NCBI GenBank assembly: GCA_934446355.1
Contig: CAKSEC010000013.1
Span: forward strand, 2,474 to 66,473
From: an uncultured Oscillospiraceae bacterium
Lineage (GTDB): Bacteria > Bacillota > Clostridia > Oscillospirales > Ruminococcaceae
Direction: 5' to 3'
Length of the DNA stretch: 64,000 nt
Positions 6,056 to 53,501 of this stretch are shown piece after piece. The notes below the pieces were generated by a model. That model worked only from the letters and a program-made list of their open reading frames with translations. It was not told the DNA's origin and searched no databases. The stretch's first letter is position 1. The number at the start of each line of letters is the position of its first letter. The translations under genes and the position numbers were made by a program.

Positions 6056-7054
6056 ATGATGGCAGGTGAAGCAATGAAAAAAGCTATTCCGGTAATTATT
6101 GTTGCGGCTATAGCCGCAGCTGCAGCGGCGATCATTTTCGCTATGCAGATCCCGCAGAAAATCGCTTTCTCTGCCGAAGCCGCCAAGTGCGATTACTTCA
6201 GCGGGAACGATGTCAGGATCCCGCAGAAAATCGCTTTCTCTGCTGAAGCCGCCGCATATCTTTCCGAAAAATACGGCGTGAACGGGGATTGCGTCTACTC
6301 ACGCATGGGCTATACCGACTCGCACCGTGATATCCTCGGAAACGGCTATACGGCAGAGTACCCCGACTTTGCGGTTTTTGAGTCGGGAGGAAACAGCATA
6401 GCGGTTCAGCGTAAGGACGTAAGATTCTGCGACGATGGTCAGAATGCGGATTTCGGTTATATTCTGGCGGAGCATTTTGCAGAAAAATGCGGCGTTGATA
6501 TCACCTTTGCGGAGCTTCGCAACTGCTCTAACGGCAGTATACCGGACAGCACGATAACAAATGTTCTTCGCAGCGATAATTCACTGCTGAATAAGGATAA
6601 CATCGAGGATATCCTGCTTACCTTTGCGGATTCACAGCCGCTTCTGGAACTTGCGCTCTATATTCCTGACAAGTACCCCGACCGGCGCGAACTTACCGAC
6701 AAGCTGTCTGCGGGGCTTTTGGAGGTCACCAAAAACGAGGGATTTTCGCTGGTGCGGTATTTCCTTTATTCTGCCGATGAGGAACTTATCGTGAACAGTA
6801 CCCTTGGTGCTTCAAAAGATAAGGAAATAGACAGCCCTGAATACCGTGCACTGAATTTTCCTTATTACTATGCGGCAAATCCTTATCTTCACGGCGTTTT
6901 GAGAATCGAGGGAACCGTGTACTGCGATAAACCGGTGAATACTTTTACGGCGGCAGGCTGGTGCGTTATGGACAGAGGTTACAGCGCAGGTCTTGGAAGC
7001 AACCCCTATGAGGAATGGAACGGCTGGAATATTTATTCGCTCATGGCGGGGTAA
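6056..7054 (+). CDS. membrane-anchored hypothetical protein (alternative start ATG 6074, MKKAIPV)
   Basis: A 332-aa ORF with an N-terminal Ala-rich TM helix. It contains an in-frame internal duplication. Confidence 0.65.
   Translation: MMAGEAMKKAIPVIIVAAIAAAAAAIIFAMQIPQKIAFSAEAAKCDYFSGNDVRIPQKIAFSAEAAAYLSEKYGVNGDCVYSRMGYTDSHRDILGNGYTAEYPDFAVFESGGNSIAVQRKDVRFCDDGQNADFGYILAEHFAEKCGVDITFAELRNCSNGSIPDSTITNVLRSDNSLLNKDNIEDILLTFADSQPLLELALYIPDKYPDRRELTDKLSAGLLEVTKNEGFSLVRYFLYSADEELIVNSTLGASKDKEIDSPEYRALNFPYYYAANPYLHGVLRIEGTVYCDKPVNTFTAAGWCVMDRGYSAGLGSNPYEEWNGWNIYSLMAG
6149..6253 (+). repeat. 36-bp direct repeat (35/36 identical), copies 69 bp apart, in frame
   Basis: ATCCCGCAGAAAATCGCTTTCTCTGC(C/T)GAAGCCGCC occurs at 6149-6184 and 6218-6253. 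It duplicates the peptide IPQKIAFSAEAA. Confidence 0.9.
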
Positions 7055-8904: not shown

Positions 8905-10104
8905 ATGATAATCCGACCCACATATCTCGAAACTCTCAGAAAATACCGCAATATTCCACTGGTCAAGATACTTGCAGGAATAAGGCGCTGCGGTAAATCC
9001 ACTATTCTCGAAATGCTGAAAAAAGATCTGCTGGAAAGCGGAGTTCCTGAAAGCAACATAATTTCCGTCCGTTACACCGCTGAAACTCTCGACCGTCCCA
9101 TGACTGCTCAGGAAATGTTCGATGAAATAAAGTCACAGATGAGCGGTCGGGGAAAATACTATCTCCTGCTTGACGAAGTGCAGGAAGTCACCGGCTGGGA
9201 AAAGGCAGTCAACAGCCTGCTGGAGGACGTGAATGCAGACATCTATGTGACCGGTTCCAACTCAAGGCTGATGTCAAGCGAGATATCCACCTACCTGACC
9301 GGTCGGTACATCTCAATTCCGGTTTATACGCTGTCGTTCGCTGAGTATATGGAGTTCCGCAAGGACAGCGAACTCACGAAAAAGGAACTGCTGAACGAAT
9401 ACATCAGAAAAGGCGGCTTCCCGATAGTGGCACTCGGAAATTTCGACGACCGTTCCTCCTATCAGATAGTGGAAGGAATATACACCTCCGTTGTCACAAA
9501 CGATATTGCCAGACGGCATAACATAACAAATCAGGAATTGTTTAACCGCATCGTTAAATACATCGTCGAGAACGTGGGGAAGACCTTTTCGGCTAACGCA
9601 ATAGTGAAGTTCCTGAAAAACGAGGGGCGTTCCCTGTCGGTGGAAACCGTATACAATTGCCTTGAACGGCTGGAAAAGGCGTTCATAATATACCGCTGTT
9701 CCCGTTACGATATGCAAGGGAAATCCGTGCTTAAAACGCAGGAGAAATTCTACCTTGCAGATTCCTCACTGAAATACTGCATAATGGGCTTCGACCCAAG
9801 GTCAGTTGCCGTAATGCTAGAAAATATCGTATTCTTTGAGCTGCGCAGAAAAGGCTACGAAGTCTATGTCGGCAAGAACGAAACTAAGGAAATAGATTTT
9901 GTTGCCGTCCGCCGTGACGAAAAGGCGTACGTGCAAGTATGCCGGAATATTCCGGAACAGTCTGACCGTGAGATAGCAAACCTCCTTGAAATAAAGGACC
10001 ACTACCCCAAATATGTAGTAACGCTTGACGACCTCGCCGGCGGAAATATCAACGGCGTAAAAATCGTTCATCTGGCGGATTTTCTGCTTTTGAGTGATTA
10101 TTGA
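8905..10104 (+). CDS. AAA-family ATPase with a DUF4143-type C-terminal domain
   Basis: MIIRPTYLETLRKY..., Walker A GIRRCGKST, Walker B LLLDEVQ. Start moved to ATG 8905, which follows the RBS. Confidence 0.8.
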   Translation: MIIRPTYLETLRKYRNIPLVKILAGIRRCGKSTILEMLKKDLLESGVPESNIISVRYTAETLDRPMTAQEMFDEIKSQMSGRGKYYLLLDEVQEVTGWEKAVNSLLEDVNADIYVTGSNSRLMSSEISTYLTGRYISIPVYTLSFAEYMEFRKDSELTKKELLNEYIRKGGFPIVALGNFDDRSSYQIVEGIYTSVVTNDIARRHNITNQELFNRIVKYIVENVGKTFSANAIVKFLKNEGRSLSVETVYNCLERLEKAFIIYRCSRYDMQGKSVLKTQEKFYLADSSLKYCIMGFDPRSVAVMLENIVFFELRRKGYEVYVGKNETKEIDFVAVRRDEKAYVQVCRNIPEQSDREIANLLEIKDHYPKYVVTLDDLAGGNINGVKIVHLADFLLLSDY

Positions 10105-15226: not shown

Positions 15227-15406
15227 CAGGGCTGCTAAAGCCAACCCTGCAAGTTTGTCGAAAAGGTATCTTCTTCAGGGTGGCGAGAAAGGCACAGATG
15301 CTAGGAAACGGCATTTCGGCTAGGCTTTGTGCCTGCCGAATATGTCGTTGACGACGCAGATGTGCCTTTATCGACAGCCTGACAGGGCTGTCCGACGGCA
15401 GCCCTG
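15227..15406 (+). repeat. structured intergenic repeat, family 1, copy A (hairpin - core - hairpin)
   Basis: The core is homologous to 16382-16463 and 52581-52776, with conserved loop TAGGCTTTGTGCCT (15321-15334). Flanking hairpins are at 15227-15249 and 15383-15406. Confidence 0.8.
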
Positions 15407-16381: not shown

Positions 16382-16463
16382 CAGCTTGTTGAAAAGTCTA
16401 CTGCCAGACTGTCGAGAAGCCCTCAGATCCTAGGAACCCGCATAACGACTAGGCTTTGTGCCT
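16382..16463 (+). repeat. structured intergenic repeat, family 1, copy B (left half only)
   Basis: About 90 percent identical to 52582-52663 up to the loop TAGGCTTTGTGCCT. The right arm is replaced by a promoter. Confidence 0.8.
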
Positions 16464-16530: not shown

Positions 16531-16854
16531 ATGTTAAAGCGTGAGGAACTGCCTGAATGCGACGTCGCAACCACCGTGCAGATAATCGGGAACAAGTGGA
16601 AGCTGCTTATAATGCGCAACCTGCTTTCCAGACCGTGGAGATTCAACGAACTGCGCAAATCCCTTGACGGAGTGAGCCAGAAGGTACTGACCGACAGCCT
16701 GCGCCAGCTTGAATCAGATGGAATAATCCTGCGCACGGTCTATCCCGAAGTCCCGCCGAGGGTGGAATATTCGCTGACAGAACTTGGCGAGTCCATGCGG
16801 CCTATCCTCTCCGCCATGGAAAACTGGGGCAAGAGTTATAAGGAAACGCTTTGA
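16531..16854 (+). CDS. HxlR family (winged-helix) transcriptional regulator
   Basis: IIGNKWKLLIMRNLL...RFNELRKSL.GVSQKVLTDSLRQLE.DGII.R...PEVPPRVEYSLTELG. Confidence 0.85.
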   Translation: MLKREELPECDVATTVQIIGNKWKLLIMRNLLSRPWRFNELRKSLDGVSQKVLTDSLRQLESDGIILRTVYPEVPPRVEYSLTELGESMRPILSAMENWGKSYKETL

Positions 16855-33966: not shown

Positions 33967-34051
33967 TTGCCGATATGCACGGAGTTCGCCAGAGGCGAAC
34001 GTATGTGCAAGGCATTTTGATTTATAATAAACGCTTTGCGTTTATTATAGC
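33967..34051 (+). repeat. 85-nt hairpin repeat, family 2, copy 1
   Basis: About 90 percent identical to 42913-42997. Hairpins are GTTCGCC-AGA-GGCGAAC and ATAATAAACGC-TTT-GCGTTTATTAT. Confidence 0.85.
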
Positions 34052-42400: not shown

Positions 42401-42811
42401 CAGCGTCGGACGTCCGAAGAAATAGAACAGCGCTCCGGCAATAGCGAGAAGCACGACCACAGCCGCAATTATTATCGGCACAATGTGTACTTTCTTCTTT
42501 TTTACAGCGGCTGCCGGCGCTGCTGCGGCAGGCTCAGGAATATAAGCGGGAGCAGGAGCAGGCGCAGGCTCGGCGGTCATTACCGGTGCTGCGGCAGGCT
42601 CTGCGGTGTAAACGGGTGCTGGCGCAGGAGCAGGCGCTGAAGCGGGTGCTGCGGGAGTAGGTACAGATGAAACAGGCGCAGCGGGAGTAGGTGCCGATTG
42701 AGCAGGGATCGGAGCAGCTGAAGCTGCCGGTTCCTGTTCGACCCTCGCCCCGCAGAAGCCGCAAAATAGTGCGCCCTCGTCAAGGGGGTTGTTACAATTT
42801 TTACAATTCAT
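39485..42811 (-). CDS. zinc-ribbon / Pro-Ala-rich / single-TM protein with a large extracytoplasmic domain
   Basis: A 1108-aa ORF with MNCKNCNNPLDEGALFCGFCGARV, a PA-rich tract of about 90 aa, and TM helix IVPIIIAAVVVLLAIAGALFYFF. Confidence 0.75.
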   Translation of the reverse strand: MNCKNCNNPLDEGALFCGFCGARVEQEPAASAAPIPAQSAPTPAAPVSSVPTPAAPASAPAPAPAPVYTAEPAAAPVMTAEPAPAPAPAYIPEPAAAAPAAAVKKKKVHIVPIIIAAVVVLLAIAGALFYFFGRPTLMRLIMGEQRYAISLVTDYVDNVKNNDPIISAVANDSTKTLNSTADLMKSFTPDTGSSVQDALSTIMYGSGVSGENIVLAASELGKVTGGQGMSADLSANIQLDNTLSNALGDNKEFLDSILSMVNSSSVNVSAKSGDSTQFALSAKTNGTDFVTANVYIDENGNAYASVPGILDKPILIQSDVSASEEETAEPFEIDQTKLSAVYDKIQQAWEKAYKNAEFTYESAEFTVGDSEHEKTFKGTCVSVTLGQKDICNFLIDVLNIIKEDSYVVEIVNGFGYEPAYFDYAVEDIIIDIENSIDDDSLDMNLTIDSYVTSDNTPCGFEATMSYRNYGEYQSVTFSSLTAGGNTAVSLTENGTKIVELVSTKIDNASGIFEISVNNSGSGKPVGLKVEYSNIATAQFLGSDVLMGKYDISLNVKSMKDDLSSMTFEIGDTQYDLYSILSKSKISIESVRDGDGIKTTFGADVYKMGTASFSVLTKPVSGDIAAAPADVTNVYSLSDITGTEALEMQLSALNYFKNKSAENASIAAMLDTFGYSADRIDGEIESLEKNKEFYAHYSSYDPENSAYYANSMASDIFTGFVYNDIYDTYALIEGKTFTLKLWFDNEGKLTVIDSGDLDMDLQNVFSSNACQNVYAELCITNGSITGVCTVLTDDPSDLPSKLPNYFNYYDGMFEFDSLDGSDYYSYVGIKDGFIIGSNKSMSIGTSETEQRVSEKTALAEKYNEAAKKAYEDFNKFMQSHGASLDPEYSVNYQILISSDGTVHANENIKPLDSIFTKELDAYKDQLFSAIRADIDVDNISIIFVIEKGKLLGVTVEEGEIYSAVTSLDFKIGCTDKWSFAQGVTFNDYSGEAWATGTYPLIPSADNATIMDKALDVISGEWYVDYCSAYDVDRNSVVNITKEEMAAQLPKDAYVIVSSNQIMICNSVGYPIFIYDPGYSGNYILTQHFTDAEGAVRTNDYIMYVSDIEQ

Positions 42812-42912: not shown

Positions 42913-42997
42913 TTGACGATATGCACGGAGTCCGCCCTCGGCGGACGTATGTGCAAGGCATTTTAATATATAATAAACGCCTTGCGTTTATTATATC
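42913..42997 (+). repeat. 85-nt hairpin repeat, family 2, copy 2
   Basis: The first hairpin is GTCCGCC-CTC-GGCGGAC, a compensatory change relative to copy 1. The second hairpin is identical except for its loop. Confidence 0.85.
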
Positions 42998-51701: not shown

Positions 51702-51998
51702 ATGAGGCTTGATATCCACGAGGAAAACAAGATGGCAATAATCTGGGCGGCTTCTGATGAAAACACAGACGTTCTGCCGCCGGAAATAGCTTCACAGCTT
51801 GAAACGCTGAGATCCAAGCACAAGAAATTCCGTGTAATTATCATGCACTCAGGAAGCGACGAGTTGTTCGAGCCTATGCTGACTTTGCTTCTCAGAAACC
51901 GCATGAAAAAAGCCCTGAATGAGGTCAGGGGAGAAAAAAACAGCAGCCCAAGTCCCCTGCCTCACCAGACGGGCTGTCAGGAAACAGTCGGATTCTAA
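51702..51998 (+). CDS. hypothetical 98-aa protein (alternative start MAIIWAA at 51732)
   Basis: AAAGGAG RBS upstream and a terminator directly downstream. No family recognised. Confidence 0.5.
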   Translation: MRLDIHEENKMAIIWAASDENTDVLPPEIASQLETLRSKHKKFRVIIMHSGSDELFEPMLTLLLRNRMKKALNEVRGEKNSSPSPLPHQTGCQETVGF

Positions 51999-52033
51999 GC
52001 CGCCCATTGCAGTCAATGCTTCGGGCGGTTTTC
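51999..52033 (+). terminator. rho-independent terminator
   Basis: GCCGCCC-N17-GGGCGGT followed by TTTT. Confidence 0.45.
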
Positions 52034-52097
52034 TGCTGTCAAGTTTTTCGGGTTGGTGTCATCGGGGGCAAGTCCCGCAAGTATCGCTTCATAGTAG

Positions 52098-52556
52098 GAT
52101 CACTATACCGCATGGCGTGAACTGGAAGCGCTTAATTCTGCAGGATATATTCGTGCGATAGGCGTATCGAATTTCGAGCCTGACCGGCTTATCGACCTTG
52201 CTGCCTACAACAGCGTAAAGCCCGCTGTAAATCAGATAGAAACTCATCTTTACTGCCAGCGTCAGAAAGAGCACGAATGGGAAAGAAAATACGGAGTTGC
52301 GCACATGGCATATGCGCCGCTCGGACAGGGACACGCAAACGAAATGTTCTCCGAGCCAGTCGTCTGTGAAATAGCCGCAAAATACGCAAAGACCCCCGCA
52401 CAGATACTGCTGCGCCGCACCATTCAGGACGGTGTTACTGTCATACCGAAGTCGGTACATACAAAGCGTATCGCTGAAAATATCAGCATATTTGATTTTG
52501 AACTATTATTGAATATGCGGTCGCTATTAGGACAGAACCGCTGTTTATTACAAAAG
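52098..52556 (+). pseudogene. aldo/keto reductase (2,5-diketo-D-gluconate reductase-like), internal fragment
   Basis: TAWRELEALNSAGYIRAIGVSNFEPDRL...NQIETH...AYAPLGQG...IPKSVHTKRIAENISIFDFEL. About 100 N-terminal residues and the last roughly 25 residues are missing. Confidence 0.65.
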
Positions 52557-52558
52557 AT

Positions 52559-52798
52559 ATCCACCGGTCCCCCGGTGGATCAGTGTGTTGAAAAAGTCTA
52601 CGACCAGACTAGCGAGAAGCCCTCAGATTCTAGGAACCCGCATAACGACTAGGCTTTGTGCCTGTCGTTATGCGGGTTGTGGCAGGACGCCACAAGTGAA
52701 AACCCCAAGCGCAGCACGACGCTGCGCATTAAAGGTTTTCGCCTTACGACGAAGATGAGGGTTTATCGACAGTCTGATCCACCGGTCCCCCGGTGGAT
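52559..52798 (+). repeat. structured intergenic repeat, family 1, copy C (identical 22-nt hairpin at both ends)
   Basis: ATCCACCGGTCCCCCGGTGGAT at 52559-52580 and 52777-52798 brackets a 196-nt core with five predicted stems. Confidence 0.85.
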
Positions 52799-52808
52799 AT
52801 CCATATTT

Positions 52809-53501
52809 TCAGCCCTGCCCGTAGTAAGCATTCGCACCGTGCTTTCTGAGATAATGCTTATCCAAAAGTTCCTGCTGCATTCTGCCTGCGGTGGGAGCGA
52901 TGGTCAGCGCATGGTAGTTCATGAATGCGACTTCCTCCAGCACAACGGAATTGTGAACCGCTTCATGGGCGTCCTTACCCCATGTGAAAGGACCATGGCT
53001 CTTAACAAGCACCGCCGGAATGCTCATGGGGTCAACTCCTGCAAATGTTTCTATTATGACCTTTCCGGTCTCCTTCTCGTACTCGCCGTGAATTTCCTTG
53101 GGAGTCATCGCACGGGTGCAGGGGATCTCGCCATAGAAGTAGTCGCCTTGGGTAGTTCCCATTGGCTGGATACCAACGCCAGCCTGCGCAAATGAAGTCG
53201 CCCAGCGGCTGTGGGTGTGTACGACTCCGCCGATAGCCGGGAATGCACGATAAAGTTCAAGATGAGTGGGCGTGTCGCTGGAGGGCTTCCACTTGCCCTC
53301 GGCGACCTTTCCGGTCGCAAGCTCAACTACCACCATATCCTCGGCGGTCATTCCCTCATAGGGCACACCGGAGGGCTTTATAACCATCATGCCGCTCTCA
53401 CGGTCGACGGCGGAAACATTGCCCCATGTGAACGTTACAAGGTTGTATTTCGGAAGCAGAAGATTGGCTTCCAGTACTTCCTGCTTTAATTTCTCTAACA
53501 T
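52809..53501 (-). CDS. araD: L-ribulose-5-phosphate 4-epimerase
   Basis: [36 protein letters not shown] and HTHS. Start at ATG 53501. Confidence 0.9.

Follow-up and report, generated by a model that had tools for sequence, protein, structure and literature searches.

The stretch of DNA analyzed here (64,000 nt, referred to below as the window) covers positions 2,474-66,473 on the forward strand of contig CAKSEC010000013.1 from an uncultured Oscillospiraceae bacterium (GCA_934446355.1). Between the minus-strand gene araD (52809-53501), which encodes an L-ribulose-5-phosphate 4-epimerase of 230 aa (PF00596; 95% identical to P0001), and the remnant of an aldo-keto reductase gene lies a strongly folded core of 196 nt (52581-52776). 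This core is directly abutted on both sides by the 22-nt hairpin ATCCACCGGTCCCCCGGTGGAT, at 52559-52580 and 52777-52798, in the same orientation and with the loop TCCC in both copies. We regard it as very probable that the core, designated copy C, is an IS1182-type MITE (miniature inverted-repeat transposable element), which inserted in the terminator hairpin of araD with a duplication of 22 bp.

The presence of identical hairpins on both sides of the core had been noticed in a first-pass annotation of this DNA and is borne out by the sequence. At three or fewer mismatches the 22-mer occurs exactly twice in the window, where 0.00 occurrences are expected by chance, and it was not found in the 331 fetched loci or in viral contigs. 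The layout reads ...ACAAAAGAT/ATCCACCGGTCCCCCGGTGGAT/CAGTGTGTTGAAAAAG ... GGTTTATCGACAGTCTG/ATCCACCGGTCCCCCGGTGGAT/ATCCATATTTTC... (slashes mark the borders), the two identical hairpins being the left and right copies of the target-site duplication, annotated without strand. Deletion of the insert and one repeat in silico yields a single longer hairpin, as had been anticipated (GATATCCACCGG-TCCC-CCGGTGGATATC, a 12-bp stem with -21.3 kcal/mol), which starts 7 nt past the araD stop codon. The uninterrupted allele between the reductase remnant and araD would be expected to read ...ACAAAAGATATCCACCGGTCCCCCGGTGGATATCCATATTTTC....

With a G+C-rich stem-loop and a T-run just behind the stop codon, the duplicated hairpin has the features of a putative intrinsic terminator. 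On the minus strand, the left hairpin copy (52580-52559; ATCCACCGG-TCCC-CCGGTGGAT) followed by ATCTTTTGTA was found to be terminator-like by a terminator scan, and this is the candidate site that would now serve araD. The plus-strand T-run ATCCATATTTTC is weaker and was not called by the scan. The intact reductase gene assumed at the other side was not confirmed, because only the C-terminal half of an aldo-keto reductase is present (51919-52652, from ...YTAWRELEALNSAGYIRAIGVSNF... on), in a disturbed frame with stop codons directly upstream and a probable frameshift after FDFEL. The called reductase open reading frame (ORF) crosses the left hairpin and terminates within copy C. This read-in is the only ORF that overlaps the element, and the 196 nt contain no transposase gene.

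Copy C represents the long form of a non-autonomous element with IS1182-type ends on the plus strand. Its left terminal inverted repeat CAGTGTGTTGAAAAAG (52581-52596) corresponds to CAGCTTGTCGAAAAAG in both the family consensus and the left end of full-length insertion sequences (IS), and its right terminal inverted repeat TTTATCGACAGTCTG (52762-52776) corresponds to TTTTTCGACAGACTG at the right ends of the full-length IS. The two ends of copy C are complementary at 12 of 15 positions and sit within the 40-nt, 80%-complementary arms of a larger inverted repeat (I1) that spans the hairpins as well. Inside the left end lies an inner box, CAGACTAGCGAGAAGC (52605-52620), a direct repeat of the left end whose pairing with the right end makes up the base of a long hairpin. 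This is followed by the invariant CTAGGAA, the 5' arm of a covarying stem and an invariant apical mini-hairpin CTAGGCTTTGTGCCT (52630-52663). A further module (52679-52742) with the helices GTGGC/GCCAC, GAAAACC/GGTTTTC and GCGCAGC/GCTGCGC is specific for the long form and missing from the short form of 127-132 nt. The minimum-free-energy fold of the core (-140.4 kcal/mol; z = -15.1 for the plus strand and z = -10.8 for the minus strand) contains all five helices that had been named at first reading.

Relatives of copy C were collected by scanning one genome per species for CTAGGAA-N12-16-CTAGGCTTTGTGCCT. Altogether, at least 108 stretches with the invariant core motif were identified in genome contigs, often many per metagenome-assembled genome (MAG). 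The carriers listed are Oscillospiraceae, Ruminococcaceae or Clostridia gut MAGs, with the exception of contig L016, which has the record title Escherichia coli. The copy on that contig is typical, has a hairpin duplication, and the contig is probably a mis-binned one from Clostridia. The 115 copies compared share a common plan, including a left end CAGCTTGTCGAAAAAG, a spacer of about 9 nt, an inner box CAGGCTGTCGAGAAAG, a long hairpin whose loops are invariant, and a right end CTTTATCGACAGCCTG. Their sizes fall into two clusters, 127-132 nt for the short form and 193-199 nt for the long form. Identical elements occur at different sites within one MAG (L022/L023; L006/L027/L047/L049/L055), a sign of recent movement. 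Only 4 copies are located between divergent gene starts, as expected for insertion at gene 3' ends.

In 22 of the 52 copies with both ends recognizable, the flank repeats exceed the 99th percentile of a null distribution obtained with mismatched partners. The repeats of these 22 copies touch both element ends exactly and are G+C-rich hairpins of 20-30 nt that differ from site to site. Hairpins (dG <= -10) were detected on both sides of 20 of the 52 copies and on one side of 10, in comparison with 5% of control windows 300 nt away. Since the flanks are site-specific and match only within a site, we conclude that the hairpins belong to the target and were doubled when the element inserted. At sites without a hairpin, a few copies carry A+T-rich duplications of 8 bp, as in L104 (ATAATTAC). 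The identical elements L022 and L023 from the same MAG have an 8-bp duplication (ATTTGGAA) and a 27-bp hairpin duplication, respectively. Diverged duplication pairs preserve their pairing via compensatory changes (L076, L020). In some cases (L071, L065, L254), the duplicated hairpin copies differ by an inverted loop (AGAAAT vs ATTTCT) or by swapped mismatched arms, which looks like template switching during gap repair. The window itself provides another diverged pair at copy A, a short form of about 131 nt on the plus strand (15250-15381). As the first-pass annotation had proposed, it has the same layout as copy C, with two diverged hairpins (CAGGGCTG...; 15227-15249 and 15383-15406) bracketing the element.

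The step from one hairpin to two is seen directly at other sites, not at the copy C locus. A single terminator hairpin (AACGCCGTGCCG-ATTAT-CGGCACGGCGTT, then TTTG) is present in L038 exactly where L004 has a long-form MITE; in L004 the left hairpin alone remains. Behind an araD orthologue, L315 has one hairpin. At the same site in L314, two copies of the hairpin, each of about 35 nt, enclose an element of 190 nt that ends in TTTTTTGACAAGCTG, an IS1182-type right end. Yet another element, starting with CAGTCTGTCAAAAAAA, is located at the base of the same hairpin in L311.

The source of mobility is indicated by full-length elements that share the ends of copy C. We scanned metagenomes with a query composed of the left end and its adjacent hairpin, and filtered out the rows from one conserved coding gene that shares a 22-mer. 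The scan returned 39 IS left ends, 36 of which abut a hairpin within 0-2 nt. The full-length elements (L254, L282, L296, L320, L321, L326) are 1518-1632 bp long, have the ends CAGCTTGTCGAAAAAG ... TTTTTCGACAGACTG, and contain a single ORF of 486-524 aa. This ORF matches the NCBIfam model NF033551 ‘IS1182 family transposase’ with 415.5 and 400.8 bits (cut-off 270), as well as the Pfam domains DUF772, DDE_Tnp_1 and DDE_Tnp_1_6. The protein family is very large, with 7652 proteins at E <= 1e-80 among 8000 candidates scored. In long contigs, perfect hairpin duplications surround three of the full-length copies (L320, 29 nt; L321, 26 nt; L326, 26 nt). In the ISfinder table the duplications of IS1182 elements range over 0-60 bp.

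The same 16-nt left end is found on at least four other miniature families, including elements of 265 nt (L005:3810-4078, minus strand) and 173 nt (L126, L145, L172), as well as on a 793-nt element (L116) and a minimal element of 43 nt (L314:2404-2446). The interiors of these other miniature families are unrelated to that of the copy C family, and several have hairpin duplications. One transposase type thus seems to drive a whole set of MITEs. In L296 (left flank of the IS at 9935-9979), a full-length IS1182 copy has inserted in a hairpin (GCCTGCGAAGCAGGC) that lies inside another MITE, a member of the 265-nt family, which indicates that the elements nest in each other's hairpins. The loci L322, L323 and L331 on the one hand and L325 and L326 on the other hold the same IS with reciprocal combinations of two different flanking hairpins; the simplest explanation is that two copies of an identical IS in one genome were bridged by the assembly or by recombination. 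A scan of viral contigs with the 16-nt left end gave mostly coincidental matches in coding sequences (KLVEK-type codons) and about ten real element ends. One of the viral contigs (L124:11348-13614) has two adjacent ORFs that by eye resemble istA/istB beside an IS1182-type end. We considered it as a full-length candidate and rejected it, as the ORFs next to the end belong, by eye, to an unrelated element with IS21-like istA/istB.

Taken as a MITE, the copy C family is thus small and lacks a transposase gene, has terminal inverted repeats, duplications that vary by site and dispersed copies, and is accompanied by an autonomous element with the same ends. Its assignment to IS1182 is based on a partner transposase that scores above the model cut-off and on hairpin or palindrome targets with duplications of variable length. 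Together, the census, the empty and filled alleles and the cognate transposase support the earlier proposal of a miniature element that targets terminators and duplicates their hairpins. A match of the core to a known element family had been named as something that would speak against this proposal; in one sense such a match exists, in that the element belongs to the IS1182 family system.

To analyze the geometry of the duplications, the empty site was rebuilt for 8 MITEs and 3 full-length elements, all 11 of them with a perfect hairpin duplication. Measured from the base of the stem, the offsets of either end of a duplication are the same or 1 apart: (2,1), (-1,-1), (1,1), (0,0), (3,3), (2,2), (3,3), (2,2), (-1,-1), (-2,-2) and (8,9), with (3,3) for copy C. 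The duplicated segment is centered on the hairpin dyad, and its length scales with the hairpin. In duplications made by DDE transposases, the joint on each strand lies where the duplicated segment has its 5' edge, and here the palindrome's two-fold axis relates the two joints to each other. The centering on the symmetry axis therefore suggests a symmetric strand transfer at the stem base. We also tried a fixed 8-bp stagger across a stacked cruciform, which predicts duplications of palindrome length plus 8. This model was rejected, because the observed lengths are palindrome -6 to +4 with one outlier (L023, -17), where the span includes weak outer pairs.

We propose the following scenario for the locus. 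An IS1182-family DDE transposase would have mobilized copy C in trans, and the element would have integrated in the G+C-rich terminator hairpin between araD and the aldo-keto reductase remnant. The two strand transfers would have occurred at mirror-image positions on opposite strands, each 3 bp in from an end of the 12-bp stem, and repair of the two single-stranded gaps would have copied the intervening 22 nt, leaving a full hairpin on each side of the element. Presumably, a symmetric transpososome captures the hairpin, cruciform or palindrome as such and joins in a concerted way across the stem base, while on ordinary DNA the stagger would be 8 bp. For the host, the outer A- and T-runs would stay with the outer hairpin copies, so that transcription from either side should still meet a complete terminator after crossing the element. 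Terminator function would in this way be preserved after insertion, and terminator hairpins are probably low-cost landing places.

Several observations weigh against this interpretation. A tblastn search of the window (64 kb) and of the loci that bear the MITE (L001-L108) gave no IS1182 transposase, and co-residence of MITE and transposase is seen at the family level only, via the Oscillospiraceae isolate Thermocaproicibacter melissae. Among the both-ended copies, 22 of 52 have no flanking hairpin. An empty allele for copy C itself was not found among araD relatives or viral contigs. The exact araD protein of the window has no match on record, and the six araD relatives with 88-95% identity, including the nearest one at 95%, have different downstream DNA. 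The comparison with empty sites that had been suggested for this locus therefore succeeded at other loci, with one versus two hairpins, but not at copy C. The structure-directed strand-transfer step is one that we infer, and PMC6199540 gives ‘Unknown’ for the mechanism by which IS1182 transposes. Furthermore, for IS1272/TnSha1 from the same family, insertion with loss of part of the hairpin and with no duplication of the target was reported (PMC4923244); set against the duplications described here, this indicates that behavior differs within the IS1182 family.

Finally, 45 of the 115 copies (e.g. L021, L084, L098, L106) keep the right end and have no recognizable left end. Their right ends have 1.5 mismatches in 15 positions, while the left ends have 7.3 mismatches vs 8.0 for random sequence. 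The hairpin is kept in these copies, and many of them have the right-hand terminator hairpin only. They could have arisen from deletion, from one-ended events or from a hairpin-only subfamily. Retroposition with 5' truncation was also considered for them and rejected, because neither a tail nor a reverse transcriptase is present, and many copies keep a decayed remnant of the left end together with the left hairpin.

Of the other explanations, the one that survives best adds to the MITE interpretation and does not exclude it, namely that the core is also retained as a structured plus-strand RNA. We rate this as possible but rather unlikely; candidate roles could be those of a 3' untranslated region (UTR) stabilizer, a processing site, a small RNA or a transposase-binding RNA. 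Structural conservation is strong. In the 84 distinct short copies, 98.0% of alignment cells fall in standard pairs vs 81.3% in shuffles. The covariation score is 0.485 vs 0.154 in shuffled alignments (reached by 0/500 shuffles) and 0.05-0.10 with slid partners. Double-sided changes occur in 20 of the 33 pairs, and the three extra helices of the long form covary as well. The loops CTAGGAA, CTAGGCTTTGTGCCT and GAC..CG.AG.T are invariant. The core pairing includes 164 G·U/U·G vs 16 A·C/C·A cells, an excess that favors the plus strand, which pairs at 98.0% vs 92.7% for the minus strand. In addition, the interiors of other MITE families with these ends are unrelated, and one such family is only 43 nt long; the interior is therefore not required for mobility. 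The copies without a left end keep the hairpin and the right end.

Other observations tell against an RNA function. No Rfam family, with group II introns, HEARO and ribozymes included, matched anywhere in the window at the gathering score, with only chance-level matches at E <= 10 over 52400-52950, and no promoter-like site was found by scan. The conserved structured RNA proposed in the first-pass annotation is half borne out: the structure is conserved with abundant compensatory changes, whereas its action as an RNA is putative, and Rfam has no family that matches. The plus strand is more often antisense to the 3' end of the abutted gene (62 vs 36), so that read-through transcripts would mostly carry the other strand. 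The copies share descent, and the cell counts therefore overstate the number of independent events; the selection of copies by an exact match to the apical motif biases the loop invariance; and G·T pairs are tolerated also in folded single-stranded DNA. Judging from the alignment, the covarying core may act in a strand-specific way as RNA, or may act as a folded single strand. The broader proposal, in which IS1182 targets are chosen by DNA shape (a two-fold symmetric transpososome making mirror-image joins where an extruded hairpin or cruciform has its base, with duplications of 20-30 bp on hairpins and 8 bp otherwise) and the core is kept as an RNA or folded single strand and is not a passive parasite, is likewise speculative, and we would not expect it to hold in full.

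An improbable alternative is that the hairpin was duplicated later, by replication slippage, template switching or gene conversion, or that a terminator-homing retroelement was involved. The inverted loops and swapped arms in L071, L065 and L254 are typical of template switching in quasi-palindromes. However, the duplications lie directly against the element on either side (distance 0 and 0), they are dyad-symmetric in 11 of 11 perfect cases, the same pattern surrounds the full-length copies that encode a DDE transposase, and 8-bp duplications are found at hairpin-less sites. A precedent for a retroelement is provided by group IIC introns, which insert after terminator hairpins, but no intron or reverse-transcriptase signature was found and Rfam gave no match. 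The sequence GTGTG after the left hairpin of copy C had raised the idea of a group II intron; it is not conserved in copies A and B, there was no ribozyme match, and the idea was dropped.

It is very improbable that the element is an immobile resident gene for a non-coding RNA, or a cis-regulatory element, with functional hairpins and repeats that arose by gene duplication. The strong structure, the covariation and the position next to terminators would fit such an origin, but at least 108 stretches at unrelated loci and near-identical copies within one MAG do not, and neither do the site-specific duplications, the empty and filled alleles and the ends held in common with a transposase-bearing IS.

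The remaining proposal from the first-pass annotation, an element of the IS200/IS605 or REPIN type with its own subterminal hairpins recognized by a Y1 (HUH) transposase, agrees with hairpins at both borders, an extragenic location and a small, highly structured core, but can be ruled out with near certainty because the hairpins are duplicated target DNA: they differ from site to site (the copy C 22-mer being absent from the other loci searched), the terminal inverted repeats of 16 nt and the target duplications of the element are both absent from IS200/IS605 elements, and the autonomous partner, whose ends are identical, codes for an IS1182-family DDE transposase and not for a Y1/HUH enzyme.

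The IS1182-type MITE interpretation can be compared with several known systems. Repetitive extragenic palindromic (REP) sequences, REPINs with their RAYT transposases and IS200/IS605 miniature elements resemble the copy C family as extragenic palindromes that are often located in 3' UTRs. In these systems, however, the hairpins are the element, conserved and cut by a Y1 enzyme in the absence of inverted repeats and duplications, whereas here the hairpins are the target. A preference for stem-loops behind genes is shared by IS1397/ISKpn1, by IS110/IS1111 elements in REPs and by group IIC introns. These depend on a specific repeat sequence, RNA-DNA pairing or retrohoming, and the hairpin is not duplicated as a whole. 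Classical bacterial MITEs (Correia/NEMIS, RUP, ERIC, MITEAba12, QMITEs) are small, with inverted repeats, target duplications, many intergenic copies and folded transcripts (PMC10969869). In contrast to the family described here, they have short duplications of fixed length and show no structure-based selection of hairpins.

The closest likeness is with other members of the IS1182 family. ISCbo5 and ISBma2 (Clostridium botulinum group III, C. novyi-NT and Burkholderia) insert in hairpin-forming inverted repeats at gene ends and are ‘surrounded’ by the hairpin (PMC3098183). They have the same transposase family, and the full-length relatives found here show the hairpin-surrounded layout exactly; the likeness to ISCbo5 is one of family and insertion layout. 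The difference is that ISCbo5 and ISBma2 are autonomous and about 1.5 kb long, whereas copy C is a 196-nt element without a transposase and with a covarying multi-helix interior, from gut Oscillospiraceae. IS1272/TnSha1 of Staphylococcus also integrates in terminator hairpins, with no primary-sequence consensus and in either orientation (PMC4923244, which cites Siguier et al. 2015 for palindromic targets of the IS1182 family), whereas here the whole hairpin is duplicated (22 nt at copy C, 20-30 nt family-wide). In T. melissae, a cultured member of the Oscillospiraceae, plasmid pTVN (NZ_CP101828.1) carries an element with a gene annotated as ‘IS1182 family transposase’. It shares the left-end architecture, with CAGCCTGTCGAAAAAG followed by GTCCAG-loop-CTGGGC, a T-run, a promoter-like site and an ATG, and hairpins abut both of its ends. 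Examples of full-length transposases are L320 1501-3075 and WP_283109454.1 of T. melissae. Unlike copy C, it is autonomous, its two flanking hairpins are unlike in sequence, and its DNA identity to the L320 element is 69.6%. Since IS1182 elements have already been reported in terminator hairpins, the kind of element is known. IS1182-derived MITEs and hairpin targeting are not mentioned in a 2024 review of prokaryotic MITEs (PMC10969869), and our literature search found no description of IS1182-derived MITEs. The copy C family is an abundant family of MITEs in the IS1182 system that had not been described before.

The window contains several further repeats. Copy B is a 5' fragment of the same MITE family on the plus strand (16382-16463) that ends right after the apical loop. 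It stops exactly after CTAGGCTTTGTGCCT and is followed by TGATTTTTTGCGGATTGTATGCTATAATG, which appears promoter-like by eye, and by a gene start at 16532. A second, unrelated repeat family is represented by two 83-nt copies (33967-34049 and 42913-42995) that are 89% identical and end in the palindrome TATAATAAACGC..GCGTTTATTATA. At 6129-6253 and 42518-42635 there are short direct repeats in tandem or near-tandem arrangement (families D3/D6 and D5), spaced 69 and 66 nt apart; these are perhaps coding repeats.

For genome annotation, it matters that these elements are very common in uncultured gut Oscillospiraceae, where they lengthen 3' UTRs, give rise to look-alike ‘double terminators’, interrupt metagenome assemblies and could be mistaken for small-RNA genes. 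The family is also a natural data set of hundreds of insertions that bears on the mechanism of IS1182. The duplication lengths that track the hairpin, the dyad-symmetric cuts and the 8-bp duplications elsewhere make a structure-directed capture of the target directly testable. Finally, as far as can be read from the sequence, the locus would illustrate how an element can insert at terminators while leaving a complete terminator on each side.

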